A stretch of 32,000 bases of DNA from positions 690,001 to 722,000 of the forward strand of contig CP011211.1 in assembly GCA_001029695.1 (NCBI GenBank). Reading direction: 5' to 3'. Positions 876-25,762 of this stretch are shown here, piece after piece (within the stretch, counting starts at the first letter, position 1; the number at the start of each line of letters is the position of its first letter). Source of the DNA: Candidatus Saccharimonadota bacterium (GTDB taxonomy: Bacteria > Patescibacteriota > Saccharimonadia > Saccharimonadales > Saccharimonadaceae). A program made the translations under genes and the position numbers. The notes under the pieces are model-generated. The model was not told where the DNA came from and did no database searches. It worked only from the letters and a program-made list of their open reading frames with translations.

Positions 876-999
876 AGTTATGTACAGAATACCATTAGTA
901 CTTATATAAGGACAAGCATAATACACGCGCACCTCTAGGTCTACGCATGATGCTTATGGTAGTGTATACTCGTACATATAATCTAGCTAAGGAAATTAC

Positions 1000-1668
1000 A
1001 TGGCAGGCGCAAAAAAGAAACAACAAAGCACTAGTAAGCGTACAGCTACGCGAAAAAAGACTTCTCTTCTTCGGAGTGATAGTTTTCGTAAAAAAGCAGT
1101 TCTTCTACTTATTGTCTTGATTGCCGTAGGTGCTATAGTCGTCTTTACATGGGTACTTCCGAAGTACAATGGCGCCAAGAGCGGTGTTGGCGCTGACGGT
1201 TTTAGTGTGTACGAAATGAAAGGCGCTGATCTTGGCGTAGCGAACAGTGTCTCAAAGGAAGATGTGCAGCGCATTCTTGGGGATCAAGTAAAGAGTGTGT
1301 CAGATGTGAAAAAATCTGGTGTGATCAACCTTAACGGTGCAAAAGGTCAGACAGCTACCTTCCCTATCGTTACCAAAGGAGATCAACAAGCGAGTTTTTA
1401 TGTTGATGTGCTTGAATACAAAAATGTCGCAGCCCTCGAAGACTCTGGCGTCACTAAGGGTACTGTCTCTGCAGGGAGAATCAATGACTCACCTGCGTAT
1501 TATATGAAATCAAATAAGCTTGGCGACCAACGAGAGACGACACTGCTCGTATCAAAAGGTTCTAAGTCATACAAATTCGTGATAGCCCAGCCGCGACAGA
1601 ATATTACCATCTCGGAGGCGGAAGGTCTCGAAAAGCTAATTGAGATTGCAAAGACTGCAAAGCTTTAA
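1000..1668 (+). CDS. hypothetical bitopic membrane protein (basic N-terminus, one TM helix, ~165-aa external domain)
   Basis: 222-aa ORF. AAGGAA Shine-Dalgarno lies 5 nt upstream of the ATG. It has a K/R-rich N-terminus, a TM helix AVLLLIVLIAVGAIVVFTWVL and a following hairpin terminator. No motif recognised. Confidence 0.6.
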   Translation: MAGAKKKQQSTSKRTATRKKTSLLRSDSFRKKAVLLLIVLIAVGAIVVFTWVLPKYNGAKSGVGADGFSVYEMKGADLGVANSVSKEDVQRILGDQVKSVSDVKKSGVINLNGAKGQTATFPIVTKGDQQASFYVDVLEYKNVAALEDSGVTKGTVSAGRINDSPAYYMKSNKLGDQRETTLLVSKGSKSYKFVIAQPRQNITISEAEGLEKLIEIAKTAKL

Positions 1669-1715
1669 GATATTCGCCGATCTTTCGTTGACTCGGTGTA
1701 GCACAGATTTTTACT

Positions 1716-1742
1716 AAATATAGCTCCTAGGGAGCTATATTT
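1716..1742. terminator. bidirectional intrinsic terminator between convergent genes
   Basis: Perfect 12-bp inverted repeat AAATATAGCTCC-tag-GGAGCTATATTT, A-rich on one side and T-rich on the other. It lies between the stop of 1000..1668 (+) and the stop of 1791..4574 (-). Confidence 0.6.
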
Positions 1743-1790
1743 AGATTCCTCAACTGCGAAATAAAAGAGTGTAGTGGTTCTGCTGTATGT

Positions 1791-4574
1791 TTACTTCGGT
1801 TCAATAAATGTACGTTGAGATGAGATATATAGGATGTCGTTGTTCTGATAGAAGCTGTCTTGCGCTTCCCGCTCTCGATCAGTCATGGTGCAATCTTCAA
1901 TATTTGCGTATGAGCCATCAACTGAACACATCATTGTGTAGGCGCGAAAATTATTCATCATTTCACTCTCTTCGAGACACTTCTTGCCTGTATACCAGTC
2001 CTGATCTTGAGCGGACCCTTCGGTGATGGACATGTAAGAGTCGACATATTTCTTATCATTTTCGCTTTTGGCATTTTCGTTACCATCAAGTGGGTAGCCG
2101 TTTACATCTGTTTTGCCGCGAATCTCTTCTTTTTCTTTTTCACTGAGCTCTTCTCGTCGCACAACCATCGCAGAACGACCCCATGGATCTTCACGGTTGA
2201 CACAATAGTCGAGGAATTTTTCGTACTCGGAGAATTTACTAGGCTTACCTGTCTTTTTATCGATAAACGGTGCGTTGCTTCCCTGTTGCGCTTCACTCAC
2301 CATTCTACTCACTTCTGCAGCGTCCCCTTCTCCATCTGTCCGCCCTAGTCTCGATTGGAGGTCACTTAACCCATCACTCGACTCGTCGGGGTGGGCTTTG
2401 CTCATATACTCAAGTACGCTATCTACTTTTGCGTCAAGTTCGGTCTTGCTCATGCTGTAGCGGACGTTGCAGGCTATGTCCGCATCGATGCCGATGCTTC
2501 GGTATTCTGCATCGGCACACTTGAGGCGTGACTCATCGAGGCTGAGCGGTTGTAGACGATAGTACGCAGAGGCTTTTTGTCCAAGTGTTGTGATTGACGA
2601 AGGTATGATCGCGAGAACATTTGAGATAGAAGATAGAAGTGGTGCGCCGCCATTGTACGTGACACCAAGCGATCGAACAACTGATCCTGTAAATGAGTAT
2701 TTGTTGTAGATATCTAATGGATTTTTCTGACCATTATCGCGTGCCACTTGGTCGATTTCGTTGAAAACTTCGTCTCCACTAGCGAGATATTGTTTTAATG
2801 ATTGCTTATCAGCTGGTCGCATACCTCGAGACATTGCCATATCGCCTAGCACTGCACCGGTACCAGCAAATAGTACGTCACTAGCTGTAGTGCCTTTTGT
2901 GTCGCTGCTAAATTTTTTCGCAGCATCCCCCGCCCATTTCGTGATAGCGTCGGCAAATATACTCGCGGCAATCGGCGTAACGACCGGATCGGTCATCCTG
3001 ACTGGAGGGAGCATGAGCCAGATGCCCTTAGGGGGGAAAGGACATATATTGTCAGATGCGGCAGCGATACCCCCTAGTGCTCCTCTGGCACCTGCAAATT
3101 CGTTTGCAGTACCGGCGGCATTTGTAAGCGCTGGGCACGATCCTGGCTTCATGGCGCTTTTGTTGCTGCTTGTTTGGCCGTCAAGGCAGTATGCTCGAGG
3201 ATTTGAGGCGATGTCATTTGGAGGTTGACGAAGGTTTCCTGGACTTCCTGTGATGCCTTTTGTAGCATCGGCATTTTTAATAATAGCGTCCCATGGTTTT
3301 TCAAGTGCGCTGATACTATCAAATACGTCCAGATTAACGCTTAGATCTTTTACCGGTTCGTTAAAGAGTATGTGTTGATACATTGTGGCGTCAGTGGCGT
3401 TTGCACCAACGTACCCACCTTGCTGGCCGTAGGCGAGCTTTCCGGAAAGAACGTTCGCAGGTACTTCATCAGCCATACCTGCCTTGATTTGGTCTGCTGC
3501 TTTTAGGTACTGCATAGCAAAGCGTGCGATTGTGTGTTCTTTTGCCGTCTTTGCGGCGTTGCTGGCTATTTTTCCTACCGTGTAATGTGCACATTGAATC
3601 TGCGTGTAAGAGTTTGCTTTACGTCCGATCTGCTGTGCTATCTGTGCGAGCTGACTTTTGACTGATCCTTCTTGCAGTGCATACAGTCCGATTCCAGCAC
3701 GTCCCGCCTCATCGAACTTTTCTTTTGAGCCTTTGAGTGATTTATCAAATGATTCATTTACTTTTTCCTCAGAATTACCTGTCACTGTCGGACTTTTTGA
3801 GAGATCAAATTTTTTCTTCAATCTGTTTTTGAATCGTTCGTCTGCATAAAAACTTGATTTACCGTTGAATACACTATTTGTCAGCTCGCGCATGGCGACA
3901 CTTTCGTTGGCTTTTTTATCAAAGTCAGCGCCGCTACTGACTGAGTCACCATTTGGAAACTTGATTGAAGAAACCTTCCAGCGACTCTCTGGCTTGTCGT
4001 TCGTGCGATCTTGATCGTCACGATTATCTTCTTCAACCTTTTCACCCTCTACTGTAAAGCCGTTCTTTTCGAAAGTAGTTTTCTGATTTCGGCTCATTGT
4101 ACTGAGCTTGCATTTGATGCTGTCTTTCTCGTCGCACTGTGCTTTGCCGATTTTGTTATCGAGCATTTTTTTGTTGTATGTGTAGAGCGCGATTGTTGCG
4201 TCGGCCAGGTCATCAGTAAACATCTCTTTTATATTTACCATGATGATATTTGGTGCAAATAAATAGAAAAACGCGATACTAAGACCAATCATACCAAAAA
4301 CAAAACCAAGTGGGCCTTTATGACGAAACGTTCCAAAACGACGCCCTCTAGCTGTGCTTGCTTTTTTTTGGCGAGGTTTCGAAACTTGCTTTACAGTGGC
4401 ATGACTATCTTCGGGTTTTTGTTCTTGTTTTTTGACGGATTCGTCTTTTTTATCAGCTTCACTAGGCTTTTTTTCTAATCGGTTTAATGTTTCACTGACG
4501 TTTGATAGTTTATCAGCATATAAGTCATCTGCTCGATCATAACTTCTGTTAGTGGGATCGTCGTCTTGAGCCAT
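1791..4574 (-). CDS. large bitopic membrane protein with ~820-aa extracytoplasmic domain (12 Cys); function unknown, co-oriented with the VirB6-like gene
   Basis: 927-aa ORF that starts 8 nt after the stop of the upstream 676-aa gene, consistent with an operon. It has a K/E/D-rich N-terminal ~85 aa, a single TM helix LGFVFGMIGLSIAFFYLFAPNIIMV and a long mixed domain. No Walker A motif, so it is not an ATPase. Confidence 0.75.
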   Translation of the reverse strand: MAQDDDPTNRSYDRADDLYADKLSNVSETLNRLEKKPSEADKKDESVKKQEQKPEDSHATVKQVSKPRQKKASTARGRRFGTFRHKGPLGFVFGMIGLSIAFFYLFAPNIIMVNIKEMFTDDLADATIALYTYNKKMLDNKIGKAQCDEKDSIKCKLSTMSRNQKTTFEKNGFTVEGEKVEEDNRDDQDRTNDKPESRWKVSSIKFPNGDSVSSGADFDKKANESVAMRELTNSVFNGKSSFYADERFKNRLKKKFDLSKSPTVTGNSEEKVNESFDKSLKGSKEKFDEAGRAGIGLYALQEGSVKSQLAQIAQQIGRKANSYTQIQCAHYTVGKIASNAAKTAKEHTIARFAMQYLKAADQIKAGMADEVPANVLSGKLAYGQQGGYVGANATDATMYQHILFNEPVKDLSVNLDVFDSISALEKPWDAIIKNADATKGITGSPGNLRQPPNDIASNPRAYCLDGQTSSNKSAMKPGSCPALTNAAGTANEFAGARGALGGIAAASDNICPFPPKGIWLMLPPVRMTDPVVTPIAASIFADAITKWAGDAAKKFSSDTKGTTASDVLFAGTGAVLGDMAMSRGMRPADKQSLKQYLASGDEVFNEIDQVARDNGQKNPLDIYNKYSFTGSVVRSLGVTYNGGAPLLSSISNVLAIIPSSITTLGQKASAYYRLQPLSLDESRLKCADAEYRSIGIDADIACNVRYSMSKTELDAKVDSVLEYMSKAHPDESSDGLSDLQSRLGRTDGEGDAAEVSRMVSEAQQGSNAPFIDKKTGKPSKFSEYEKFLDYCVNREDPWGRSAMVVRREELSEKEKEEIRGKTDVNGYPLDGNENAKSENDKKYVDSYMSITEGSAQDQDWYTGKKCLEESEMMNNFRAYTMMCSVDGSYANIEDCTMTDREREAQDSFYQNNDILYISSQRTFIEPK

Positions 4575-4581
4575 ATCTCAC

Positions 4582-6612
4582 CTACTTACTATCTTTATGG
4601 ATGAGGTCTATCGTATCATCGTCTTTTTTTTCAGTGAGCTTGAGGTCTAATGCCTTACGTGCTTCCTCTACGTCATTTGCGGCATCAAATATGTATTTTT
4701 GTGCACGAGCTTTTGCCTTTGCTTCCGAGCCACTGACAGGTACTTGATCGTGAACACCAAATTGCCCTACAGCATTTGCAGCAGTCGCTTCGCCTCCTGG
4801 TTTCTTGCCAAGAAGTGCTGATGCGTCGACTTGCACTGGTACGGCAACAATCTGCTGAACTGAATTAGTGTTCGCTTGGCCGGCGTTCTGTGTATTGATT
4901 CCTCCGGCTTGCGCCATAGATGGAGCACGGTACTCGTTTGCTTGTCCACCGTTTGGAGCCTGTCCATTGCTACCTCCTGATGACTGTTGTCCGCCAGCGG
5001 CACCAAGTGAGCGCATTTGGTCTTTTGAAGGTGGTTTTTGCTTGTTGTTGAAGTCTGTTTTCTTCTTATCGTCGTCTTTATCTTTCTTAGAAAGACTAGC
5101 CTGAATCGCGTCAGCGTCGACATTGAGTCCGTCGGCACCTTCGACTTTTGCTTGGGCCGCTTGGGCGAGCTGTGCATTATTTATTTCTTCAGCCTTTGCT
5201 TCGCTCAATCCTTGACCGAGAGCGCCAGCCGATAGTGGGTCATTTGCTGTTGATGATGCGGTAGGCATACCGGTATTTGATTTATCTGCACTAGTTCCAG
5301 GTCGGCGTAGTGCTTCGCCTGCGGGGTTGCCCGCACCTATAGCACTTCCGCCAAGGGCTGATTTTCGACGTCGACGCATAAAGGTCGGACGCTTATCAAA
5401 GTTACCGCCAGCAACAGCTGATTTTGTCGGCGGTGTTTTACCAGCCAACTTACCCATGCGTGCTTCACTTTTGTCGGATTTTCGTATACCACGGCTTGCG
5501 TCGGAAAGTTTCGATCCGGCTGACGTTGCGACGGTTGTCGCGCTTTTCATGACAAACCACACACCGAGTAGAGGCATGACAGCTGCTGCTGCTGCTGCAA
5601 GTCGAGTCATTGCACTTGTGGATGTTGAGCCGCTCTTTGTTTCATAATTGTCGTCTTCAACCTTATATCCACTATCTCCGATACTATCTATCGTTGCGCT
5701 TACGATCTGTCCTGCCCCAAGTAAGAGTGCGATGACTGGATAAATCAGAAGAAGTTGTAGTGATAGCCGGACCCACTGCTTGAAATAGTTTTCAGTATTT
5801 GGCAAAAGATACGCGACAAACATTAATGGGGAGATAAGGATAAGCATAGAGGCGACGACCTTGCGAGCGATTAATAATACCAGCGCTACCGCAGAAACCA
5901 CAGCAATTCCTGTTGTTACTATGGCTATAGGAGCGAGGAGGATCCACACGGTACCTGTTTTTGTGAGCATCGATGAGACGATCTCCGTAAGTACTCCATC
6001 TTTGAAGCCATCCTGTGCTGCAGCGAGTGACATACCGGGTGTTCCGCCAATTTGTTCAACTACTCCACTCGTTATTGAAAAGATGACACTGCCAAGAATA
6101 TTAGAGAGTTCAGCTCCCATCGCACATATATGGTAGGACAGGTTGACAAAGATTGCGCCTAATATTAAACGTGGCAACATTCGCTTGATACTATAGCCTC
6201 CGGAATTTTTACCAGTTACTTGTGAGTAAATGATTATAAGAAATACAAGAACGAAGACGATATTTGCGATGTTACGCATGACTTCCCATGCCTTGTAGGT
6301 TCCACTCTGGGTGTTTGTGAGACTGTAGTCGATCTCAAGAAAAGTTTTGTTGATGAATGCAAAGCCGTAATCGCCCATGCGTGCAATAGTACGTAGAGTC
6401 GGACATATCACCCATCCCACCATCTCTATGGAGCAGGTTGATACACCCGCGCTATAGTTTGATGTATTGACGGGCTGTGCAGATGAAGTGTTTGCGTTGA
6501 GGACTGAAAAACTTAGAGTAAGAACGCTAAAAATAGCTAGCGTAAACAGCATAACGCGCCTGCGCTGTTGTTTTGCGGCTGTAGCCACCCCTATTAGCCA
6601 TCGGATTACCAT
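4582..6612 (-). CDS. VirB6/TrbL-like polytopic membrane protein with ~300-aa low-complexity C-terminal tail
   Basis: 676-aa ORF with a signal-like N-terminus (alternative start at M21: MLFTLAIFSVLTLSFSVLNA). It has at least 5-6 hydrophobic helices in residues ~110-370, matching TrbL/VirB6-type topology. An A/G/Q/K/N/S-rich tail follows. The family call is from topology and context only, not from a search. Confidence 0.55.
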   Translation of the reverse strand: MVIRWLIGVATAAKQQRRRVMLFTLAIFSVLTLSFSVLNANTSSAQPVNTSNYSAGVSTCSIEMVGWVICPTLRTIARMGDYGFAFINKTFLEIDYSLTNTQSGTYKAWEVMRNIANIVFVLVFLIIIYSQVTGKNSGGYSIKRMLPRLILGAIFVNLSYHICAMGAELSNILGSVIFSITSGVVEQIGGTPGMSLAAAQDGFKDGVLTEIVSSMLTKTGTVWILLAPIAIVTTGIAVVSAVALVLLIARKVVASMLILISPLMFVAYLLPNTENYFKQWVRLSLQLLLIYPVIALLLGAGQIVSATIDSIGDSGYKVEDDNYETKSGSTSTSAMTRLAAAAAAVMPLLGVWFVMKSATTVATSAGSKLSDASRGIRKSDKSEARMGKLAGKTPPTKSAVAGGNFDKRPTFMRRRRKSALGGSAIGAGNPAGEALRRPGTSADKSNTGMPTASSTANDPLSAGALGQGLSEAKAEEINNAQLAQAAQAKVEGADGLNVDADAIQASLSKKDKDDDKKKTDFNNKQKPPSKDQMRSLGAAGGQQSSGGSNGQAPNGGQANEYRAPSMAQAGGINTQNAGQANTNSVQQIVAVPVQVDASALLGKKPGGEATAANAVGQFGVHDQVPVSGSEAKAKARAQKYIFDAANDVEEARKALDLKLTEKKDDDTIDLIHKDSK

Positions 6613-6694
6613 AACTACTATAAAGTATCGTTTATAGCGACGCGACTGTCAATGATATAGCACTCCGTTTTCAGATAGTGTACGATGAGTATAT

Positions 6695-7261
6695 ATGATC
6701 AAAAAAAGCACACACTTTTCTTTTTTACGAACAATAATTATCGCTAGTTTTATTGTTACTGGTCTCGCACTGTTTCAGAGCAGCTCTCCTGTTTCTGCTG
6801 TTGGTGTCTGTCCTGGCGGTGAGATTGTTGGCTCAGCAAGTACGCCTGGCGCGACTGACCTCGCAAAATGCTATAAAGTAAAATCTGTCACCAATGGTGT
6901 CGCTACGTACGAAGCGACTACATCAAAGCCGACGGTCGACTCCACCACTCCGCCTACTGGAGGTACCACTCAGGGAGAGTGTGCAGGTGTCAAAACCTCT
7001 TTTATAAGCTGTAAAGGTCAAGGCGCTGAGGCGGTTGGCGGTGTGTTGAAGCAGATTATCCTGATCGTAAGTATTGGTGTCGGTATCGTTGCAGTGGGCG
7101 GTATTGTGTATGGCTCTTTGTTATATACAAGCGCTCGTGATAGTCAAGCGCAGACGCAAAAGGCAATTACGATCATCAGTAGTGTCGTTATTGGGTTGCT
7201 TCTCTATGTATTTATGACTGCGATACTCAACTGGCTTATTCCAGGTGGTGTGTTTAGCTAA
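6695..7261 (+). CDS. pilin-array member P1: secreted protein with 4-Cys ectodomain and C-terminal double-TM module (subtype A)
   Basis: 188 aa with a signal peptide (...SSSPVSA). The C-terminus CAGVKTSFISCKGQGAEAVGGVLKQIILIVSIGVGIVAVGGIVYGSLLYTSARDSQAQTQKAITIISSVVIGLLLYVFMTAILNWLIPGGVFS aligns along its length with the P2 C-terminus. Confidence 0.7.
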   Translation: MIKKSTHFSFLRTIIIASFIVTGLALFQSSSPVSAVGVCPGGEIVGSASTPGATDLAKCYKVKSVTNGVATYEATTSKPTVDSTTPPTGGTTQGECAGVKTSFISCKGQGAEAVGGVLKQIILIVSIGVGIVAVGGIVYGSLLYTSARDSQAQTQKAITIISSVVIGLLLYVFMTAILNWLIPGGVFS

Positions 7262-7312
7262 TAGTTAACTGCTTGTGTTTACTGTTCTCGTAATGTATTT
7301 TATGTAGTAGGT

Positions 7313-8461
7313 ATGAACATAAAACAAAAAATATTATTTCCTGTCTTATTCCTGGTTCTAAGTTTCTCGACGGCGATCTTTTACGATGTCAGTACAACGT
7401 ACGCATGGTGTGATAATTTGAATGCTAGTACAAAGGATCAATGTGTTTATGATAATTATGATAATCTCGATGATAAGCGTGGAGTTGATCAAACTAAGTA
7501 TTTAGAGTGGGTAAACGGCTGCTTCGGTACTAATACGGGTGGCCTGATTTCTGATAAGGCTGATGGCGGTGAATGTGCCAATGCAGTAACAAACTGCATG
7601 AGATACGCTGTAAATTTAGACAAATGTGGAGATAATGAGCAGACCGCAAAGTGGGCTAGTGATAATTGTAATGGTGGTCGCGGAACATCTGGGTCACCGT
7701 CCTGTGCAACAGGGGTGAATCAAAGTGAATTTACGGATAAAGACAAGAGTATTGTCGATAAGGCTGTTCAAAATTGTACGCAAAATCAAGGTCAACAGCA
7801 AAAAAATCTGGAAGACTGTAAAAAAAGTGTCGAGCAATCCGTAAAAGCCTGCAAAGAAAAGCAAGGTATTACTTCGCCACTTAGCTATAGCGATCGTAAT
7901 AAACTCGATATTAATGCTTATCAAAAATGCATCAACGATGGCATGCTCTCCTCATCTAAAGATCAGGCAGAGTGTGAAGGGAGGGGTGGTGTTTGGAACG
8001 GTACAATAGGTCCAGTTTCTGGTAGCCGATGCGCCGCCCCGCCAACGCCCGCTGCCACGTGTGCCGACGGAAGTAAGCCTGGAGCAGATGGCAAATGTGC
8101 GGATGGAAGTACACCAGGAAAAAAAACAGCCGAGCAGCCGAGTGGATCGTATAAAGGCACGCAAACTCAAAACTGCGGAAAAGCGCAGACGAACATCCTG
8201 AGTTGTGATAAAGATAGTAGCGGAAGCGAAGTTATTGGATATATACTGAAAGCTATCTTGATGATTATGAGTGTTGGGGTTGGAATTCTCGCGGTCGGCG
8301 GTATTGTATACGGTGCTATTCTCTACTCTAGTGCTCAGGACAATGCAGCGCAGACGAAAAAAGCAATTGAGGTTATAATAAATACTGTTATCGGATTATT
8401 GCTATATATATTTATGTATTCGATTCTAAATTGGCTTGTACCAGGAGGAGTATTTCTGTAA
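7313..8461 (+). CDS. pilin-array member P2: secreted protein with ~300-aa, 18-Cys ectodomain fused to double-TM module (subtype A)
   Basis: 382 aa with a signal peptide and 18 cysteines in an N/D/K/Q-rich ectodomain. The C-terminus is CGKAQTNILSCDKDSSGSEVIGYILKAILMIMSVGVGILAVGGIVYGAILYSSAQDNAAQTKKAIEVIINTVIGLLLYIFMYSILNWLVPGGVFL. Confidence 0.7.
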   Translation: MNIKQKILFPVLFLVLSFSTAIFYDVSTTYAWCDNLNASTKDQCVYDNYDNLDDKRGVDQTKYLEWVNGCFGTNTGGLISDKADGGECANAVTNCMRYAVNLDKCGDNEQTAKWASDNCNGGRGTSGSPSCATGVNQSEFTDKDKSIVDKAVQNCTQNQGQQQKNLEDCKKSVEQSVKACKEKQGITSPLSYSDRNKLDINAYQKCINDGMLSSSKDQAECEGRGGVWNGTIGPVSGSRCAAPPTPAATCADGSKPGADGKCADGSTPGKKTAEQPSGSYKGTQTQNCGKAQTNILSCDKDSSGSEVIGYILKAILMIMSVGVGILAVGGIVYGAILYSSAQDNAAQTKKAIEVIINTVIGLLLYIFMYSILNWLVPGGVFL

Positions 8462-8949
8462 TGCGCATCGCACTACCTATAAAAATAAGAAGGGCTATTG
8501 TAGTATCTATATTTACTATGGCTCTCGCGGTGACATCGCTTGCGCCGATTACCACCCCTGCAGTTGCCGCACAGAATCAACCGGCGGGTGGCCAGCAGAC
8601 AGCTCAGGATAAGTGTAAACGAGGTAGTTTCCTTGCTTTTCCTCGCTGGTACGATGGGCTTTGTGAGAATGGTAAGATTAAACCCATCTCTAACACAAAT
8701 GCAACTGGTGCTGGTAGCTTGGGTAGTATGATATGGACGATTGTGCTTAATATTATCGCCATAATGCTCTATGTAGTAGGTTATGTATCTCTCGGATTTA
8801 TTATCTGGGGAGGGATTAAGTTTGTGATCTCTGGAGATAATGCCAATGGTGTCGCCTCTGCACGAAAGACTATACTTAACGCGGTTATTGGACTTGTGAT
8901 CTCGATCATGTCGACAGCCATAGTCAATGTAATAGCGGGAACATTTTAA
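8461..8949 (+). CDS. pilin-array member P3: VirB2/TrbC-like double-TM small secreted protein (subtype B, divergent)
   Basis: In-frame ATG at 8461 overlaps the P2 stop (TAATG), and I prefer it to the track start at 8431. It has a signal peptide ending ...PAVAA and 2 Cys. The C-terminal module is WGGIKFVISGDNANGVASARKTILNAVIGLVISIMSTAIVNVIAGTF. Confidence 0.7.
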   Translation: MRIALPIKIRRAIVVSIFTMALAVTSLAPITTPAVAAQNQPAGGQQTAQDKCKRGSFLAFPRWYDGLCENGKIKPISNTNATGAGSLGSMIWTIVLNIIAIMLYVVGYVSLGFIIWGGIKFVISGDNANGVASARKTILNAVIGLVISIMSTAIVNVIAGTF

Positions 8950-8954
8950 CTAAT

Positions 8955-9350
8955 ATGAATATGATTTTTCAAGGCTTTTCACAAACACCATCGGCACAGA
9001 TCACTATCAGCCCCGATGAAATTAAGGCACCCGTAAACCAGCTTGATGAAGCATCGCTTGGTTTGCTCTTAAATACCGTTTACTTATGGGTTGGGATTAT
9101 TGCAGTTATTGTGATTATCATCGCAGGTATTCGCTACACGACAAGCGGGGGCGACCCTGCACGGGTGAAGGCTGCTAAAAACACAATTCTCTACGCAGTT
9201 GTAGGGCTTGTGGTTGTAATTATGGCTGCTGCGATTACTCAGTTTGTGATTCAGGGTGCTACTAGTGGTGGTACGGGTGGCTCAAATGCAGCGAATCAGC
9301 AGCAAAACCCAGCAGGGGGCGGTACTACCCCTCCGGCATCAGGTAATTAA
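8955..9350 (+). CDS. pilin-array member P4: double-TM module protein without obvious signal peptide, G/T/N/Q/P-rich C-terminal extension
   Basis: 131 aa. The module is VGIIAVIVIIIAGIRYTTSGGDPARVKAAKNTILYAVVGLVVVIMAAAITQFVIQG. It is followed by ATSGGTGGSNAANQQQNPAGGGTTPPASGN. Confidence 0.65.
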   Translation: MNMIFQGFSQTPSAQITISPDEIKAPVNQLDEASLGLLLNTVYLWVGIIAVIVIIIAGIRYTTSGGDPARVKAAKNTILYAVVGLVVVIMAAAITQFVIQGATSGGTGGSNAANQQQNPAGGGTTPPASGN

Positions 9351-9382
9351 TGATATATTGACTATGAAAGGCGAAATAAAAA

Positions 9383-9760
9383 ATGAATCAATTTAAAAAG
9401 ATAATGACCGCAACGCTTATTACACTTGGGTTGGCTGGAATTACCACACTAACACTAGTTGATAGTGCATCTGCTGTTGAAGTGTTTCAGGGGTGTAGCG
9501 GAGGAAATTCATCCGTAGTGTGTAACTCAAAGGGCGATAACGCTCAAACGATCATCAAGAATGTCATAAACACGATTTTGGTCGTACTAGGTATGATCGC
9601 TGTGATCATGATCATCATTGGCGGTATCCGCTACACGACGAGTAACGGTGACTCGGGTTCGGTCAAAAGCGCAAAAGATACTATTCTCTACTCTGTCGTT
9701 GGGTTGGTAGTTGCCATACTGTCATTTGCAATTGTTAATTTTGTAGTAGGAAGATTTTAA
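9383..9760 (+). CDS. pilin-array member P5: VirB2/TrbC-like T4SS-pilin-type protein (subtype B)
   Basis: 125 aa with a signal peptide ending SASA and a CSGGNSSVVC pair. The module is LGMIAVIMIIIGGIRYTTSNGDSGSVKSAKDTILYSVVGLVVAILSFAIVNFVVGRF. Confidence 0.75.
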   Translation: MNQFKKIMTATLITLGLAGITTLTLVDSASAVEVFQGCSGGNSSVVCNSKGDNAQTIIKNVINTILVVLGMIAVIMIIIGGIRYTTSNGDSGSVKSAKDTILYSVVGLVVAILSFAIVNFVVGRF

Positions 9761-9777
9761 AAGGAGTTAATTATTAT

Positions 9778-10161
9778 ATGAAGAATCTAAAACTAGGACT
9801 TATCTCTGTGATGGCTATTGTAGGAGTTGCTTTTGCGACCCCACTGCTCGTCGTTTCAACTGTCGGTGCCGAAGGTCCAGCGGATGCGATAGGAGAGGGT
9901 GCAAAGAAAGTCGGAGGCGACAACGCTGGTATGTCTCTTGAAGACGGGATTAAGAACGTTGTTAACGTGCTTCTTTTCCTTCTTGGAGCGATTGCTGTGA
10001 TCATGATCATCATTGGCGGTATCCGTTATGCGACAAGCAATGGCGACTCGGGCGCGATTAAGGGTGCAAAAGATACGATCCTCTATGCGGTTATTGGACT
10101 GATCGTAGCTATTCTCGCCTATGCAATCGTCAACTTTGTCGTTGGTGCATTTGCGAAGTAA
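9778..10161 (+). CDS. pilin-array member P6: VirB2/TrbC-like T4SS-pilin-type protein (subtype B)
   Basis: 127 aa, with AAGGAG upstream and a signal peptide ending TVGA. The module is LGAIAVIMIIIGGIRYATSNGDSGAIKGAKDTILYAVIGLIVAILAYAIVNFVVGAFAK. Confidence 0.75.
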   Translation: MKNLKLGLISVMAIVGVAFATPLLVVSTVGAEGPADAIGEGAKKVGGDNAGMSLEDGIKNVVNVLLFLLGAIAVIMIIIGGIRYATSNGDSGAIKGAKDTILYAVIGLIVAILAYAIVNFVVGAFAK

Positions 10162-10234
10162 GCTATTAACAAACCGACCCGTATCTGCTATAACATAAGT
10201 AGGACAATTCCATAAGAAAGGAACTATAAAAATA

Positions 10235-10663
10235 ATGAAAAAAAATATCAAACAACTGCTAGCTGGCGCACTTCTTCTACCAGTTATGGTGCTTGGAGCG
10301 AGCTTTTTCACAACAGCACTTCAACCAGCACCTGCAGTACACGCAGCATTTGAAAAAGGCATGATGGATGGCGCTAACTCAGCTCAAGGTAAGAACCAGC
10401 AGGGTGATGCCGCAACTCTCTTTGGTGAAGGTGGCGAAGGTGGTATTTTCCGTACTATCACAAACGTGCTCCTCTTCCTTATCGGTGCGATCAGTGTGAT
10501 CATGCTTATTGTTGGTGGTATTCGCTACGTTGTATCTGGTGGTGATCAGTCAGCTGTTCAAGGTGCCAAGAACACAATTCTCTACGCGATTGTTGGTGTG
10601 GTTGTAGCTATCCTAGCTTTTGCCGTCGTCAACTTCGTTATCACAAGCTTCTCAAATTCATAA
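10235..10663 (+). CDS. pilin-array member P7: VirB2/TrbC-like T4SS-pilin-type protein (subtype B)
   Basis: 142 aa with a signal peptide ending AVHA. The module is IGAISVIMLIVGGIRYVVSGGDQSAVQGAKNTILYAIVGVVVAILAFAVVNFVITSFSNS. A strong terminator follows. Confidence 0.75.
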   Translation: MKKNIKQLLAGALLLPVMVLGASFFTTALQPAPAVHAAFEKGMMDGANSAQGKNQQGDAATLFGEGGEGGIFRTITNVLLFLIGAISVIMLIVGGIRYVVSGGDQSAVQGAKNTILYAIVGVVVAILAFAVVNFVITSFSNS

Positions 10664-10682
10664 TTGAGTAGTAGCATTTACA

Positions 10683-10713
10683 CTACCCTGTCATGACAGC
10701 AGGGTAGTTTTTT
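10683..10713 (+). terminator. intrinsic terminator closing the pilin array
   Basis: Stem CTACCCTG / CAGGGTAG (8 bp) followed by TTTTTT. Confidence 0.7.
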
Positions 10714-10762
10714 GTTTGCTGTGACCTTGGTATTACGCCTAGGTCATATTTATTGAGCACTA

Positions 10763-10791
10763 AAATACCCCCTTCTCGCTAGGGGGTATTT
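10763..10791 (-). terminator. intrinsic terminator of hsp20
   Basis: Stem AAATACCCCC / GGGGGTATTT (10 bp) with a 9-nt loop. On the minus strand it is followed by a T-run. It lies 26 nt past the hsp20 stop. Confidence 0.6.
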
Positions 10792-10816
10792 CTTTGAATT
10801 GAGCGTGATTTCCGTA

Positions 10817-11278
10817 CTAAAGTACTTGGATCTTTTTTGCTTGCTCTTGCTTCACCTTACTAAAGCTGATGGTGAGGACGCCGTCTTTGAGGACTGCTTC
10901 AACTTCATCTTCTTTTACAGCTACAGGAAGTGCAAGCGTGCGGCTGAACTCACCCCAGAAACATTCTTGGATGTGCCAGTTTGTTGCACTGCTGTCGTCA
11001 CCACTACTTAGCGTACCGCTAATAGTAAGGATGCCGTCGCTGATGCTAACATCAAGCTCTTCTTTGTTTACACCAGCAGTACGTGCTTTGACAACGAGCT
11101 TTTCTTCAGTCTCATATACATCAACAGCAAGCTGTCCTGGAAATTCATCTTCAGCGGAATCTGTTTCATCAACAGCTGGAGTATGGGGTGCTTGTACTTG
11201 AGATAGGTCATCATCGTTCAAGAACGCTGCTGCCAACTCATCTTCGATCAATAGATCATCGTTTTGCTTTCGGGCCAT
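10817..11278 (-). CDS. small heat-shock protein, Hsp20/alpha-crystallin family
   Basis: Alpha-crystallin-domain pattern: LAVDVYETEEKLVVKARTAGVNKEELDVSISDGILTISG ... FSRTLALPVAVKEDEVEAVLKDGVLTISFSK. I moved the start to ATG at 11278 (MARKQ...), which has GGAGG 5 nt upstream. The track GTG at 11290 overlaps that SD. Confidence 0.85.
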   Translation of the reverse strand: MARKQNDDLLIEDELAAAFLNDDDLSQVQAPHTPAVDETDSAEDEFPGQLAVDVYETEEKLVVKARTAGVNKEELDVSISDGILTISGTLSSGDDSSATNWHIQECFWGEFSRTLALPVAVKEDEVEAVLKDGVLTISFSKVKQEQAKKIQVL

Positions 11279-11385
11279 GGTAACCTCCACTTTTCTCTTG
11301 GCTCACTTGACAAATAGTCTTCTACAGTATAACCAATATATGCAGTATAATCAATAAAATAGCATAGCTAAACGTAAAAAGTACA

Positions 11386-12054
11386 ATGATAGATGACATA
11401 TTATCACTCATAGCCCCTCACTACTGTTTTGGATGCACAAAAGTAGGGGTAGTTTTATGTCAAAATTGTAAATATAACATCATATCTGAGCCGTATCGAC
11501 GATGCATAAACTGTGCAGTTCCCATAACGACAAACAGAGGAGTATGCTTGCGTTGTAAACTACCCTACTCTCGTGCCTGGTGTATCGGGGAGAGAAATGG
11601 TGAGCTGGAGTCATTACTTAACGCGTATAAATTTAGCAATGTACGTGCAGTGTATAAGGCGTTTGCTGATCTTCTCGACTCATCGCTTTCAAACCTTCCT
11701 TCTTCGGTGTATGTCGTTCCAGTTCCTACTATTACTACTCATATACGACAACGTGGCTATGATCATACTGCATTGATTGCAAAAGAGTTTGCCCGTAAGC
11801 GTAAACTGACGTACTTACCGTGTCTTGGGAGAAAGACTAATACGGTACAGCGAGGTAAAGGGCGTGGCGAGCGTATCAAGCAGGCGAAGACCGCGTTTAC
11901 ATGTCAGGCTCAGCTTGATGACAGTGGTGTTTATCTATTGATTGATGACGTAGTGACGACAGGCGCAACCGTACGATATAGTGCAAAAGCATTAAAAGCC
12001 GCGGGCGCTAAAGATGTATGGGTGGCATCAATTAGTCGTCAACCTCTCGACTGA
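11386..12054 (+). CDS. comFC: ComF-family protein (ComFC-type phosphoribosyltransferase-fold competence protein)
   Basis: N-terminal 4-Cys zinc-finger pattern (CFGC ... CQNC, then CINC ... CLRC). C-terminal PRTase motif VYLLIDDVVTTGATV. Confidence 0.8.
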   Translation: MIDDILSLIAPHYCFGCTKVGVVLCQNCKYNIISEPYRRCINCAVPITTNRGVCLRCKLPYSRAWCIGERNGELESLLNAYKFSNVRAVYKAFADLLDSSLSNLPSSVYVVPVPTITTHIRQRGYDHTALIAKEFARKRKLTYLPCLGRKTNTVQRGKGRGERIKQAKTAFTCQAQLDDSGVYLLIDDVVTTGATVRYSAKALKAAGAKDVWVASISRQPLD

Positions 12055-12096
12055 ATGCCTATAATCTGGTACCATGGTTTTCGTACACTTACACAT

Positions 12097-12186
12097 GGAG
12101 AGGTGCCCGAGTGGTTGAAGGGAACGGTCTTGAAAACCGTCGAGCCGGCAACGGTTCCGAGAGTTCGAATCTCTCTCTCTCCGCCA
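12097..12186 (+). tRNA. tRNA-Ser (anticodon UGA), CCA encoded
   Basis: Cloverleaf folded by hand. Acceptor GGAGAGG/TCTCTCC, anticodon stem ACGGT/ACCGT with loop CTTGAAA, long variable arm, T-arm GAGAG-TTCGAAT-CTCTC, 3' GCCA. Confidence 0.9.
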
Positions 12187-12283: not shown

Positions 12284-15055
12284 ATGAAAATATCCTCTCC
12301 ATCAAACGAGGCGTATCGTCTCTCTGTCGACGACGCACTAAACCAATATCAGACAACAGAAAAAGGTCTCGGTGTCATGCGAGCTGGTCAACTGTTTGAG
12401 GAAAATGGCCCAAATGCGCTCATTGCCCTTAAGTCTGAGCCGTTGTGGCGTCGTTACCTGCGTCAATTCCAGGACTGGATGATTCTCTTACTGCTTGCGA
12501 GTGGTGCTATATCTGCATACCTCGGTGATATACGTACAGCAGCGGTTCTCGCGGCATTAGTCTTATTTAACACTATCATAGGCTTTATGCAGGAGTACCG
12601 AGCCGAGCGAACGATGCAAGCACTTGAGAAACTCGTTCAGCCGCTTGCTGAGGTATATCGCGACGGAACACTGACAGAAGAAGAATCTCGACGGCTGGTC
12701 GTGGGAGATGTGATTCGTCTCACTGAAGGCGATAGCGTACCTGCGGACGTAAGGCTTATCGAGGTTTCTGCATTTTCAACCAACGACTTTGCGCTGACGG
12801 GCGAAAGTAACCCAACACGTAAGTTTGTCCACGCAATTGGCGGTACGGTTCCTATGGCGAACCGTCATAATCTCGCATATATGGGCACAACCGTAGCAAC
12901 TGGCGAGGCCTACGGCCTTGTGATCGCCACTGGTATGGATACGGAGCTTGGCCGTATTGCGAGCCTTAGTCAGGAGGCACCTCACGATATTAGCCCGTTG
13001 CAGCGGGAAATGCGTCACATAGCCACGTACGTGACATATGGCGTCGTTATTTTGTCACTTATCTTGTTGATCGTGGCTATTTATGCGGATCTTCCACTTA
13101 AAGAGGCGCTACTCTTCGCGGTTGGGTTTGCAAGTGCGCTCATTCCACAAGGCTTACCTGCCGAAGTAAACACTTCCTTGGCGCAGGCTGCAGGCAAGCT
13201 ATCTCGGGCAAAGGCGTTAGTTAAGAAGTTGAGTGCCGTGGAGACGCTTGGCGCGACGCACATTATCTGTACAGACAAGACAGGGACGCTGACGAAGAAT
13301 GAAATGACTGTCGAGAGTATTATCGTCGGCGATCAGGCGTACGACATATCAGGGACTGGCTATCAACCAAAGGGAGCTGTTGAACGAAGAGGCCGACAGA
13401 TAAGTGAAAAAGAATTAGCACAACTCCAAGACTTTTTTCGTATAGGCCTGTACGCCAGCAATGCTAAGATTCTCGCTCCTGATCAGCACTCTGAGAAATG
13501 GTATTGTCTTGGTGATCCAACCGAAGGTGCATTAATCACCCTTGCTGCAAAAGCAGGCCTTGTCACCGAGGATGAGTTGGCGAGGCGTGTTGAGATTCGA
13601 GAATTGCCGTTTGACTCGAGTCGAAAACGCATGACGTCTATCCGTGATCACGGCCATCGGGCGATCGCGTACGTAAAAGGTGCTCCCGAAAATATCCTTG
13701 AGCGCGCTACGCATATTTACGAGAACGGTGCCGCACGAGCTATAACCGACAAGGATAAGCAGCGTTTTCTCGATGAGCATACGGCGCGTGCGGGTCGTGC
13801 ACTTCGAAATCTTGCCTTTGCCACACGCGAGCTGACGCTTGATCAGGCAAAGCACCTTGCTCTCGACGATGTCGAATCGCGCCTCACGCTCGTAGGTATG
13901 GTGAGTATGATTGATCCTATTCGCGAAGCAGTGCCAGCTGCTATGCGAGCCGCCCGCCAAGCTCACATCAAGGTAAATATCGTGACGGGTGATTTTGCAC
14001 TTACGGCTATGGCGATAGCGAAGCAGGCGGATTTGGTTGCAGATGAAAGCGAGCTAACTGTCGTAACTGGTGAGCAGCTTAATACTATGACTGACGATGA
14101 GGTTCTGAAGCAAACGACAAAGGGTGGTACGATTTTTAGTCGTGTCAGTCCAGAAGATAAGATGCGTATCGTAGGGCTCGTGCAGTCATCTGGGCAGGTT
14201 GTTGCTGTAACTGGTGACGGTATAAATGACGCCCCTGCTCTAAAGCGAGCCGACATTGGCGTAGCGATGGGTATTACGGGGACGGATGTGGCTAAGCAGT
14301 CTGCCGAAGTGATCCTTCTCGATGACAGTTTTAGTACGCTTGTGCGAGCAATTCGCCAAGGGCGTACTATTTTTGCCAACATCAAAAAAGGCGTGTTGAG
14401 TTGTTTTACCTCAAATGCTGCTGAGCTTGTCGTCAATATCGGTAGTCTTGTTTTACTGAGCGTCGCGGGTATTCCGCTTTCGATTAATGTCTTGCAGCTT
14501 CTAGCTATCGATCTTCTCGCAGAGCTCTTCCCTATTGCGGCGCTTGGATGGGACAAGGAAGAGGGTGAAACTATGAAGCAAAAGCCGCGTGATCCAAAAG
14601 CTCATATCCTTAATCGTCGAAGTATCCTTGATATCTTGTGGTGTGGCCTTGTGATCGGTGGCTTGGCACTCCTTAATTACCTATGGTTCTTCGATCGTCA
14701 TGGGGTCAATCCTCAAGATGCCGCTACAGACCTTCTATATAGCGCTACTACTATGACGTATGTGACGATTGTATTCTGTCAGTTGGTAAATATCGCTCAG
14801 CGACGCAGCGTCCATGGTCTTTTCACGAGGTATCAACTATCAAACCGCTATTTCTGGATTGCAGTACTCTTCTCGATTGGAGTGGTGCTCGCCATTACAT
14901 ACGTGCCATTTGTCAGTCAGTTCTTTAAGAGTGGTCCAATAGGGCTTATCGACTGGGCATTTATCGGAGCGGCGATGTTGATCTTCCTTGGTGTTCGGGA
15001 AGTGCAGCGTTTATGGGGTGAATTTCGTCGAAAAGATGTCGTAGAAGCTGTCTAA
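12284..15055 (+). CDS. cation-translocating P-type ATPase (P2/SERCA-like architecture; ion specificity unresolved)
   Basis: 923 aa. Motifs read: LTGES (actuator TGES), ICTDKTGTLT (phosphorylation site), VKGAPE, VTGD, VAVTGDGINDAPALKRADIGVAMG. M4 reads IPQGLPAE. Confidence 0.9.
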   Translation: MKISSPSNEAYRLSVDDALNQYQTTEKGLGVMRAGQLFEENGPNALIALKSEPLWRRYLRQFQDWMILLLLASGAISAYLGDIRTAAVLAALVLFNTIIGFMQEYRAERTMQALEKLVQPLAEVYRDGTLTEEESRRLVVGDVIRLTEGDSVPADVRLIEVSAFSTNDFALTGESNPTRKFVHAIGGTVPMANRHNLAYMGTTVATGEAYGLVIATGMDTELGRIASLSQEAPHDISPLQREMRHIATYVTYGVVILSLILLIVAIYADLPLKEALLFAVGFASALIPQGLPAEVNTSLAQAAGKLSRAKALVKKLSAVETLGATHIICTDKTGTLTKNEMTVESIIVGDQAYDISGTGYQPKGAVERRGRQISEKELAQLQDFFRIGLYASNAKILAPDQHSEKWYCLGDPTEGALITLAAKAGLVTEDELARRVEIRELPFDSSRKRMTSIRDHGHRAIAYVKGAPENILERATHIYENGAARAITDKDKQRFLDEHTARAGRALRNLAFATRELTLDQAKHLALDDVESRLTLVGMVSMIDPIREAVPAAMRAARQAHIKVNIVTGDFALTAMAIAKQADLVADESELTVVTGEQLNTMTDDEVLKQTTKGGTIFSRVSPEDKMRIVGLVQSSGQVVAVTGDGINDAPALKRADIGVAMGITGTDVAKQSAEVILLDDSFSTLVRAIRQGRTIFANIKKGVLSCFTSNAAELVVNIGSLVLLSVAGIPLSINVLQLLAIDLLAELFPIAALGWDKEEGETMKQKPRDPKAHILNRRSILDILWCGLVIGGLALLNYLWFFDRHGVNPQDAATDLLYSATTMTYVTIVFCQLVNIAQRRSVHGLFTRYQLSNRYFWIAVLFSIGVVLAITYVPFVSQFFKSGPIGLIDWAFIGAAMLIFLGVREVQRLWGEFRRKDVVEAV

Positions 15056-15638: not shown

Positions 15639-15731
15639 GGAGGAGTACCCAAGTGGCTTAAGGGGACGGTTTGCTAAATCGTTAGTCTGGGGAGACCTGG
15701 AGCGGGAGTTCGAATCTCCCCTCCTCCGCCA
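15639..15731 (+). tRNA. tRNA-Ser (anticodon GCU), CCA encoded
   Basis: Acceptor GGAGGAG..CTCCTCC, anticodon stem ACGGT/ATCGT with loop TTGCTAA, long variable arm, T-arm GGGAG-TTCGAAT-CTCCC, 3' GCCA. Confidence 0.9.
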
Positions 15732-18528: not shown

Positions 18529-18605
18529 GGACCCGTAGCTCAGCTGGATAGAGCGTCGGCTTGCGGAGCCGAAGGCCATATGTTCGAATCATATCGGGTT
18601 CACCA
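18529..18605 (+). tRNA. tRNA-Arg (anticodon GCG as read), CCA encoded
   Basis: Acceptor GGACCCG/CGGGTTC, D-arm GCTCAGCTGGATAGAGC, anticodon stem TCGGC/GCCGA with loop TTGCGGA, T-arm ATATG-TTCGAAT-CATAT, 3' ACCA. Confidence 0.85.
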
Positions 18606-25715: not shown

Positions 25716-25762
25716 AAACGTAAGGTTTATTTAGAAATAAAAATATGGAGAGGATTAATCGT

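Follow-up and report, generated by a model that had tools for sequence, protein, structure and literature searches.

Two neighbouring genes, P1 and P2, were examined in a stretch of 32,000 nucleotides from a Candidatus Saccharimonadota bacterium (contig CP011211.1, positions 690,001 to 722,000; hereafter the window, whose own numbering is used throughout). The locus is a chromosomal VirB4-type type IV secretion system (T4SS) of a Saccharibacteria (Patescibacteria) epibiont, and P1 and P2 are the first two genes of its pilin operon. We found that both proteins are enlarged versions of an obligatory first-slot pilin, in which a passenger is inserted between the signal peptide and a disulfide loop. 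In P2, this passenger is the most variable element of an otherwise conserved locus.

The first-slot rule emerged from the comparison of related loci. Hereafter, class A denotes proteins carrying the C-terminal module common to P1 and P2, and class B those of the type of P3-P8, the other pilins of the window; these assignments use our own hidden Markov models (HMMs), built from 26 and 15 sequences. A genome scan with the class A motif yielded 46 loci, nearly all from genomes bearing the label Saccharibacteria, Saccharimonadia or Saccharimonadales. Across 40+ genome loci, each array opens with its one or two class A genes, and no class A gene was found further along an array; about five class B genes come next, with stereotyped lengths and Cys counts. 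Hence, the co-occurrence with short paralogs on which the original prediction relied was indeed observed. Because this first sample had been selected on class A itself, the test was repeated on metagenome contigs, anchored on the last gene of the array (slot B5) and covering relatives with at least about 50% B5 identity. Class A came first in 36/36 arrays having at least five genes and upstream sequence; 33 of these arrays contained one class A gene and three contained two. The class A proteins of the B5-anchored sample measured 117-438 amino acids (aa), with 14/39 reaching at least 178 aa (array lengths are longest open reading frame (ORF) estimates, thus upper bounds). A pair resembling P1 and P2 is kept in L136, whose P2 is only 36% identical, and the close strain L003 has one class A gene only.

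Six slots recur across species, their order and lengths being stereotyped in 29 + 36 other arrays: A (about 130-400 aa with at least 2 Cys), B1 (about 145 aa, 2 Cys), B2 (about 98 aa, 0 Cys), B3 (about 125 aa, 2 Cys), B4 (about 128 aa, 0-2 Cys) and B5 (about 140 aa, 0-2 Cys). Over 29 species, the mean pairwise identity of the hairpin is 0.56 for A, 0.55 for B1, 0.53 for B2, 0.61 for B3, 0.68 for B4 and 0.80 for B5. Such a gradient along the array would suit a shaft that is conserved and a distal part that varies, although it is only suggestive. Overall, recurrent slots, stereotyped lengths and Cys counts, and rising conservation argue for an ordered heteromeric assembly rather than for the antigenic-variation reading of the literature. 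The B1 slot, occupied here by P3, also has a small disulfide-containing ectodomain, which reaches 226-257 aa with at least four Cys in some genomes (L028, L030, L068, L071, L130). On these longest-ORF estimates, passenger growth is therefore not wholly confined to class A.

Both ORFs described in the original prediction, with 4 and 18 Cys, exist and contain all the quoted motifs. P1 (6695..7261, + strand) encodes 188 aa and scores 135.5 bits with the class A HMM versus 62.7 with that of class B. P2 (7313..8461, + strand) encodes 382 aa and scores 131.3 versus 66.7 bits. P1 is 100% identical to AKM80611.1, HBH77159.1 (DDX46_00225) and OGL33622.1 of Candidatus Saccharibacteria, while P2 has 67 database relatives, every one with the class A module; gene callers predict both proteins in related contigs. 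These exact annotated matches, relatives and gene calls show that P1 and P2 are not chance ORFs. The two genes and their surroundings showed no noteworthy tandem repeats.

In P1, a predicted signal peptide (aa 1-35; 6695..6799, +) comprises a basic n-region, a core at aa 7-31 and a small-x-small site with putative VSA/VG cleavage. The passenger (aa 36-95; 6800..6979, +) consists of a beta-hairpin unit bounded by Cys39 and Cys59, followed by a Thr/Pro/Gly-rich linker. Then comes the disulfide loop C-A-G-V-K-T-S-F-I-S-C (aa 96-106; 6980..7012, +), which is conserved in class A and contains the two other cysteines, Cys96 and Cys106. Hydropathy and AlphaFold2 helices (111-146 and 151-181; predicted local distance difference test (pLDDT) 74-85) delineate a transmembrane helical hairpin (aa 111-181; 7025..7237, +) that precedes the PGGVFS end. 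In a 37-sequence class A alignment, C96, T101 and C106 of the loop are invariant, as are A133, G136, G167, L181, P183 and G184 of the hairpin and end.

P2 is built in the same order. Its predicted signal peptide (aa 1-31; 7313..7405, +) has its core at aa 5-27, a probable TYA/WC cleavage site and an MxIKQ start conserved in the family. The passenger ectodomain (aa 32-270; 7406..8122, +) is made of a helical Cys-stapled domain, a CE-x-x-GG-x-W beta-hairpin and two C-x-DGS-x-P repeats, and a Pro/Ala/Gly-rich stretch, AAPPTPAATCADGSKPGADGKCADGSTPG, begins at residue 241. The composition over aa 31-270 is 11% G, 9.6% D, 8.8% K, 8.3% N, 8.3% S, 6.7% C and 5.8% Q. A polar linker (aa 271-287; 8123..8173, +), with AlphaFold2 pLDDT below 50 across 271-306, leads to the disulfide loop C-G-K-A-Q-T-N-I-L-S-C (aa 288-298; 8174..8206, +), of which C288, G289 and C298 are invariant in a 20-homolog alignment. 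The transmembrane hairpin (aa 304-375; 8222..8437, +), delineated by AlphaFold2 helices 304-340 and 345-375 and by hydropathy, ends with PGGVFL.

The C-terminal pattern shared by P1 and P2 is real, with 51/78 identical positions (65%) and a local score of 281. Alignment of either C-terminus with P3-P7 gives 13-30 identities, scores of 68-101 and 20-37% identity. A search with P1 recovered many proteins of 120-150 aa that have the P1/P2 module in common with it and nothing else. Four hallmarks define class A: a Sec signal peptide, often with an M-x-I-K-Q start; a C-x-G-x-x-T-x-(I/L)-x-x-C disulfide loop; a Gly-rich two-helix hairpin (GVGI-AVGGIVYG ... VIGLLLY); and a PGG(V/I)(F/I) end, in which L-x-P-G-G is invariant. 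The default length is about 130 aa, and the passenger-less short form is the commonest. The architecture is thus not unique to P1 and P2 but elaborates a first-slot pilin class that is present in every array examined, usually in short form.

Profile-profile comparison of short class A with the P3-P8 type (hhalign) gave a probability of 99.3% (E 1.1e-20, 73 columns, 23% identity), which indicates that class A and class B are homologous. Hence, the contrast drawn by the original prediction between the module of P1/P2 and that of P3-P8 holds at the level of subfamilies, but not as a separate kind of double-transmembrane module. From these comparisons, the P1/P2 module is assigned no new fold but a distinct subfamily of the VirB2-like T4SS_pilin family. 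With PF18895, P1 scores 18.6 bits (E 0.002) and P2 19.4 bits (E 0.0011), below the gathering score of 26.6, and some class A relatives pass PF18895 in precomputed annotations. The Pfam search found no match to PF04956 in P1 or P2, and no NCBIfam model matches either protein. A profile search of 1.84 billion cluster representatives returned 222 proteins with E<=1e-30; their number rose to 2,858 with E<=1e-10 and to 10,745 with E<=1e-3, where class B is certainly included. With about 10 invariant residues and a mean identity of 56% across 29 species, the class A hairpin appears, from its alignment, more conserved than a plain anchor would need. Foldseek comparison of the low-confidence P1 model with the PDB placed 8dfu, the conjugation pilin of Aeropyrum pernix, in fifth position (E 5, TM-target 0.67, 71 columns), and a PDB-sequence profile search found nothing.

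The topology of both proteins follows from the same features. At the N-terminus of each, a basic n-region precedes a hydrophobic core and a small-x-small site, and hydropathy indicates two hydrophobic helices at the C-terminus. This corresponds to the layout of the VirB2 superfamily, a signal peptide and then two helices joined by a short polar loop. After cleavage of the signal peptide, the passenger would be outside, helix 1 would run inwards, the loop LY-SA-x-D-x-x-x-Q would be cytoplasmic and helix 2 would bring the C-terminus back out. Upstream of the hairpin, 181/206 non-redundant class A proteins have an even number of Cys (binomial p = 2e-30). These even counts, together with the normally extracytoplasmic domains found at the C-terminus of relatives, fit a topology with an outer passenger. 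Consistently, the signal peptide, the even Cys counts and the secreted-type domains at the other outward end give no indication of a cytoplasmic Cys-rich part, in agreement with the ectodomain assignment made initially. By these sequence criteria, the P1 and P2 passengers are evidently built to be extracellular and disulfide-bonded.

The variability of the P2 passenger was assessed by comparison with close strains. The counterparts of P2 as a whole in three of them are 63%, 43% and 31% identical, with flanking genes at 96-100%. By blastn, the window matches strain L002 at 97.2% over 1-7264 and at 96.4% over 8120-12186, with nothing between. This recombination cassette (7265..8119, +), without DNA similarity to an otherwise 96-97% identical strain, corresponds exactly to the spacer between P1 and P2 together with the signal peptide of P2 and its ectodomain as far as residue 269. 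The L002 counterpart, P0008, is an unrelated 364-aa protein whose hairpin is 83/84 identical to that of P2. In addition, P0001 carries the P2 ectodomain (189/190) on a different hairpin (66/84), and the P2 hairpin is 84/84 identical to that of P0003, the ectodomain of which is divergent or unrelated. The passenger and the hairpin of P2 therefore reassort independently.

In strain L001, the flanking genes are 94-98% identical at the protein level, with ratios of nonsynonymous to synonymous divergence (dN/dS) of 0.03-0.09, whereas P2 is 63% identical overall. Residues 1-30 and 281-370 of P2 are 100% identical between the two strains, and residues 31-220 only 23-47%, with saturated dN and dS; the divergent DNA segment is 7418-7957 (blastn). 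Saturated dS in a sharp block between near-identical flanks indicates that P2 alleles were replaced by recombination and not diversified by local point mutation. It also makes dN/dS uninformative in the divergent block. In-situ positive selection was considered as a source of the P2 divergence and rejected, since dS is saturated in the block and 0.05-0.2 in the flanks, which recombination explains better. The comparison with L003 (GCA_016000075.1; 7265-10161 versus L003:9809-12623) shows 99-100% identity for the 927-aa neighbouring gene, P7 and Hsp20, 92% for the VirB6-like protein, 77% for P5, 73% for P6, 57% for P4, 52% for P3 and 31% for P2, P1 being absent. Hence, the proximal array was exchanged as a block and forms a diversity hotspot, of which the class A passenger is the extreme. 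All 14 contigs in which the 927-aa neighbour is identical also share the 382-aa allele of P2. Altogether, the comparisons with L001, L002, P0001 and P0008 strongly confirm the proposal that a hypervariable ectodomain is joined to a conserved transmembrane module. Diversification by a diversity-generating retroelement (DGR) was rejected for the window: no direct repeat in the 32-kb window involves 7313-8461, no reverse transcriptase domain was found among the scanned ORFs, and P2 diverges in whole-domain blocks with saturated dS, unlike the A-site mutagenesis of DGRs.

The ectodomains were modelled with AlphaFold2. The P2 model, computed from a 20-sequence alignment, has a mean pLDDT of 63.7 and a predicted TM-score (pTM) of 0.39; that of P1 has a mean pLDDT of 63.4, the two pTM values lying at 0.35-0.39. 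P2 is modelled as helical over aa 43-223 (block pLDDT means of 53-86, some 10-residue blocks being at 74-86), with a small beta pair at about aa 226-241 around C-E-x-x-G-G-x-W and a disordered linker at 271-306. Cys 33, 70, 88, 206, 221, 240, 288 and 298 are invariant in 20 homologs with a column identity of 34%, which suggests a conserved disulfide scaffold with variable surfaces. The P1 passenger is modelled as a single short beta-hairpin closed by Cys39-Cys59 (strands 59-66 and 69-75, pLDDT 62-72), then a disordered Thr/Pro-rich linker (residues 81-110). This linker contains indels between strains (188 versus 193-195 aa), and the P1 passenger is present only in the close relatives P0068-P0072. 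A kinship with the beta-type passengers of P0008, P0048 and P0066 was considered from the shared C...KC(W/Y)KV pattern and set aside, the resemblance being at pattern level only (BLAST E about 6).

Neither ectodomain has a significant match in Pfam (E up to 1), in NCBIfam or in the PDB-sequence profile search. Foldseek against the PDB gave nothing significant with either ectodomain model (best E 4.4 and 1.5), and Pfam detected no known domain in the ectodomains of ten other family members. In line with the original prediction, no match of the P1 or P2 ectodomain to a known enzyme fold or family was thus obtained, from models of low confidence. With such models a known fold is possible, and "no known fold" is not a strong statement. 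No free-standing P2-type ectodomain was detected, all 67 full-length P2 matches carrying the class A module at that sensitivity.

Class A hairpins also carry enzymes. Among the best 150 class A matches, 16 proteins measuring 357-608 aa combine a module close to the N-terminus with a long extension at the other end. Pfam identified these extensions as Y_phosphatase3 (P0215, P0234, P0243, P0254, P0309 and P0061; E down to 7e-41), Exo_endo_phos (EEP; P0227, P0256, P0283 and P0299), GDPD (P0260, P0279 and P0294, a shorter protein), GDSL lipase (P0310), pectate-lyase-like beta-helix (P0250) and Beta-lactamase family (P0055 and P0059; E 9e-42). In NCBIfam, the P0055/P0059 extension is closest to AmpH-type DD-peptidases, below the cut-offs. 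P0055 and P0061 bear passengers at both ends, Cys-rich at the N-terminus and enzymatic at the C-terminus, and some phosphatase passengers weakly match the Pfam family "Polymorphic toxin system DSP-PTPase". These hydrolase families fit an action on phospholipid, phosphodiester polymer, polysaccharide or peptidoglycan substrates. In two genomes, a phosphatase-fused gene lies outside the T4SS cluster (L004:10001-11431; L137:3929-5047), both times in the order RRF, RecF-like, fusion gene, a 210-212 aa protein (weakly OmpA-like) and EF-Ts. As a separate observation, the window itself encodes a 605-aa protein (25745-27562, +) with a pectate-lyase-like beta-helix (PF12708) and a DUF5907 repeat, without a pilin hairpin; its enzyme family is the same as that of one class A passenger type. 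The same carrier module is thus joined to unrelated passengers in different genomes, as in P0008 versus P2 or in the C-terminal enzyme fusions. This diversity makes class A a general carrier of outward-facing passengers, of which P1 and P2 are the non-enzymatic, in-array representatives.

These results lead to a model for P1 and P2. The class A hairpin would be the constant part, docking the protein into the T4SS pilin assembly, as suggested by the hairpin conservation, the first-slot rule and the passenger-less forms. The disulfide-stapled passenger would be the variable part: displayed towards the host bacterium, it would determine binding or specificity, and recombinational allele replacement would renew it. 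Class A proteins may be incorporated in the filament, most likely as a minor distal subunit. In the solved conjugative pili (F and T pili), both pilin termini are on the outer surface, while the inter-helix loop lines the lumen, so that a passenger added to a pilin hairpin at either terminus would point outwards. In our view, the chances are even that P1 and P2 act as host-facing specificity domains associated with the T4SS assembly, and lower that they have a VirB5-like role strictly at the tip. The adhesin or tip role initially put forward is plausible from the sequences, and the outer domains of P1 and P2 are the best candidates for host-bacterium recognition by this T4SS.

Several points weigh against this model. 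No adhesin-like or lectin-like fold or family was detected in the ectodomains with Pfam or Foldseek, and confidence is low for the two AlphaFold2 models (mean pLDDT 63-64). No filament has yet been demonstrated for any patescibacterial T4SS (PMC12857230), the data are also compatible with class A proteins staying in the membrane, and a 240-aa domain on a pilin may hinder polymerisation. Phage or host defences, not receptor choice, could drive the variation. The essential SEML1_0014 of Southlakia epibionticum is placed in class A by its position and length only. Finally, the enzyme fusions, which lie away from the T4SS in conserved housekeeping neighbourhoods, fit the idea of a general anchor no less than that of a pilus adaptor.

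A broader version of the host-facing model is tentative, and doubtful as a whole. The class A hairpin may be a dedicated pilus-incorporation adaptor, mounting interchangeable passengers at the distal end of an essential T4SS filament, and slots A and B1-B5, instead of being redundant variants, may make up a heteromeric assembly ordered from tip to shaft. The passengers would include Cys-rich binding domains, phosphatases, EEP and GDPD phosphodiesterases, lipases, polysaccharide lyase-like and DD-peptidase-like domains. If this is correct, the pilus itself would bring host-recognition and envelope-attacking activities to the host, making these proteins "evolved pilins", the T4SS counterpart of evolved VgrG/PAAR.

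On the other hand, the class A hairpin could be a generic surface anchor tethering extracellular proteins (binding modules in P1 and P2, hydrolases in other members) to the cytoplasmic membrane of the epibiont itself. Without ever polymerising, they would act on the cell surface or in the zone of the wall, beside the T4SS and not as a part of it. The phosphatase-fused genes found far from the T4SS in a conserved RRF-RecF-...-EF-Ts neighbourhood speak for it, as do passengers at either hairpin end that include ordinary exoenzyme families. Moreover, VirB2-type pilins (VirB2, TraA) reside as a membrane pool before assembly. We nevertheless find it unlikely, because some 10 invariant residues, the conserved disulfide loop and the fixed PGG end exceed what an anchor requires, because an anchor would not be expected in the first slot of the pilin operon in 36/36 arrays, and because it would have nothing to tether in the commonest, passenger-less form of class A.

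The exchange of P2 alleles with sharp boundaries on a conserved Cys scaffold would also suit evasion, in which P2, exposed and abundant, would have diversified its ectodomain to escape competitors, phages or defences derived from the host, serving as a shield or decoy that varies and not as a receptor-binding adhesin. In Anaplasma and Bartonella, the presence of several VirB2 paralogs has been interpreted as antigenic variation (cited in PMC12102498). This explanation appears improbable, given that the six slots are positional orthologs with stereotyped lengths and Cys patterns. Redundant variants are also difficult to reconcile with S. epibionticum, in which transposon sequencing (Tn-seq) showed the six array pilins to be individually essential (PMC10633639). 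Furthermore, no mechanism of switching was found, the window having neither silent cassettes nor a DGR template, inverted repeats not having been searched. Least probable is that class A nucleates or caps pilin assembly at VirB6 while its ectodomains bind the wall or S-layer of the epibiont itself: the class A gene does adjoin a divergent VirB6-like gene and takes the first slot in every array, and most genomes have a short class A whose core role cannot need a passenger, yet a self-binding domain should be conserved in 97% identical strains, where it is the most variable segment of the locus.

The rest of the locus is organised around the pilin operon. P1-P7 are seven + strand genes arranged head-to-tail. 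P3-P7 (8518..10663) are five class B pilins occupying slots B1-B5, all canonical PF18895 members scoring 30-49 bits, above the cut-off, and several also weakly match TrbC/VirB2. They are P3 (8518-8949; this start follows a 143-aa gene call in L052, the longest ORF beginning at 8431), P4 (8955-9350, B2), P5 (9383-9760, B3), P6 (9778-10161, B4) and P7 (10235-10663, B5), all on the + strand. A terminator-like hairpin with a T-run (10682..10708, +), found by pattern match 3' of P7, has a 10-bp stem with 5 G-C pairs followed by TTTTTGTTTG and is likely the end of the P1-P7 operon. The divergent intergenic region upstream of P1 (6613..6694) is presumed from the layout to contain the promoter of the pilin operon; a promoter scan of it gave consensus-level promoter-like matches only, not above the shuffled background.

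Beyond this region, a VirB6/TrbL-like T4SS membrane protein of 676 aa (4582..6612, -) is transcribed divergently from the pilins. It matches PF04610 TrbL (E 7.6e-6, 26.3 bits for a cut-off of 25.9), and PF19590 TrbL_3 was found on the identical copy of this protein in L052. Next to it, a 927-aa protein (1791..4574, -) is without a recognised domain (no credible Pfam or NCBIfam match), is conserved in the T4SS cluster and occupies the same position in all related loci, with 98.4-99.7% identity between strains. A 222-aa protein (1000-1668, +) likewise has no credible Pfam or NCBIfam match. Both recur without exception in the T4SS cluster of the related loci, are 98-99.7% identical between strains and are uncharacterised conserved T4SS components. 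On L052, a contig with identical genes, a second TrbL_3 protein, PrgI (VirB3-like), a TraC-like protein and the VirB4 ATPase are encoded further upstream; two further TrbL_3 proteins in all lie beyond the extent of the window, and the VirB4 (DUF87/P-loop_TraG), PrgI and TraC-like genes are about 8-10 kb away.

From the VirB6-like gene onwards, the order is pilins, Hsp20 (opposite strand), ComFC-like, tRNA-Ser (12097-12186), P-type ATPase and solo pilin (opposite strand). It matches SEML1_0013-SEML1_0024 of S. epibionticum (order taken from Table S1/S2 of PMC10633639), except for the gene between the tRNA-Ser and the solo pilin. The solo pilin of the window, P8 (15052..15459, -), belongs to class B (PF18895, E 2.7e-8) and converges on the P-type ATPase gene (12284-15055), overlapping its end by 4 nt. 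Most related loci have a solo pilin in the corresponding place, a few kb downstream of the array and on the opposite strand. Its positional counterpart SEML1_0024 scored non-essential, unlike the six array pilins (PMC10633639). Three tRNA-Ser genes (tga, gct, cga) and one tRNA-Arg gene lie within 7 kb among the pilin and ATPase genes, at 12097-12186, 15639-15731, 18529-18605 and 19067-19156. The window also encodes true type IV pilins: two type IV pilin-like genes with the N_methyl motif (15899-16414, - and 16530-17060, -) share an 86-nt stretch, 99% identical, that encodes the N-terminal helices (16302-16387 versus 16924-17009). They differ outside this stretch, which looks like recent gene conversion or duplication.

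The role of the T4SS and pilin array in Saccharibacteria has been described as "completely unknown" (PMC11665869). The system is essential for their epibiotic growth, and our analysis singles out one obligatory first slot, to the pilin of which evolution repeatedly attached outward-facing domains. Class A proteins are therefore concrete, testable candidates for host recognition and for the action of the machine at the host surface. Natural allele pairs, in which the same strain background has different ectodomains, are ideal for comparing host range. In addition, the class A sequence signature finds proteins that current Pfam thresholds miss.

Among known systems, the closest are the T4SS pilin arrays of Saccharibacteria themselves (Wang et al. 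2023, PMC10633639; Quinonero-Coronel et al. 2025, PMC12102498), which represent the same locus and family, with tandem PF18895-type pilins by VirB6/VirB4. VirB2-like arrays of 2-11 genes have been documented in 383 Patescibacteria assemblies (PMC12102498). The published arrays consist of small, sequence-divergent pilins (103-185 aa in S. epibionticum), for which variation among paralogs was suggested. The filter of this 2025 survey required PF18895 or PF04956 with i-E < 0.001 and coverage > 50% (PMC12102498); P3-P8 pass it, while P1 and P2 (E 0.002 and 0.0011) fall just outside. The same survey detected no adhesins in its Patescibacteria dataset (PMC12102498). Thus, pilin arrays and their essentiality were already published, whereas in these papers and the rest of the literature library searched we found no description of a first-slot pilin subclass, of large Cys-rich passengers, of their strain-level cassette exchange or of enzyme-fused VirB2-like hairpins.

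VirB5/TraC minor pilins resemble P1 and P2 in the proposed role, that of a minor component of a VirB2 filament, encoded alongside the pilin gene and in contact with the host. However, P1 and P2 have no sequence similarity to VirB5 (Pfam, E up to 1), so that only a functional analogy is possible. VirB5 proteins are soluble helical bundles without a membrane hairpin (PMC12857230), whereas P1 and P2 combine a pilin fold with an added domain. The minor pilins of type IV pili, tip-located modular pilins and PilY1-associated priming complexes, also join a conserved polymerisation module to a variable outward domain at the head of a minor-subunit set. Nevertheless, their machine and fold are unrelated, with a single N-terminal helix and a prepilin-peptidase N-methylation motif, where class A combines a two-helix hairpin with a Sec signal peptide. 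Evolved VgrG/PAAR/Hcp proteins of type VI secretion systems and polymorphic toxins share with class A the association of a constant module with interchangeable passengers, hydrolases included. This is an analogy only, as the secretion system is different and class A passengers are found at either end of the hairpin.

Finally, the Mbov_0395 family (NF045849), from integrative and conjugative elements of Mycoplasma, is a two-helix pilin-like protein of monoderm MPF-FATA-type conjugation. We know of no passenger domains in this family. The class B pilins at 8518-8946 and 10235-10660 and the short class A protein P0080 match NF045849 weakly (E 4e-4 to 4e-6, 20-26 bits), all scores being far below the 40-bit cut-off, and P1 and P2 themselves have no match. 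This similarity bears on whether monoderm MPF-FATA systems truly lack VirB2-like proteins.

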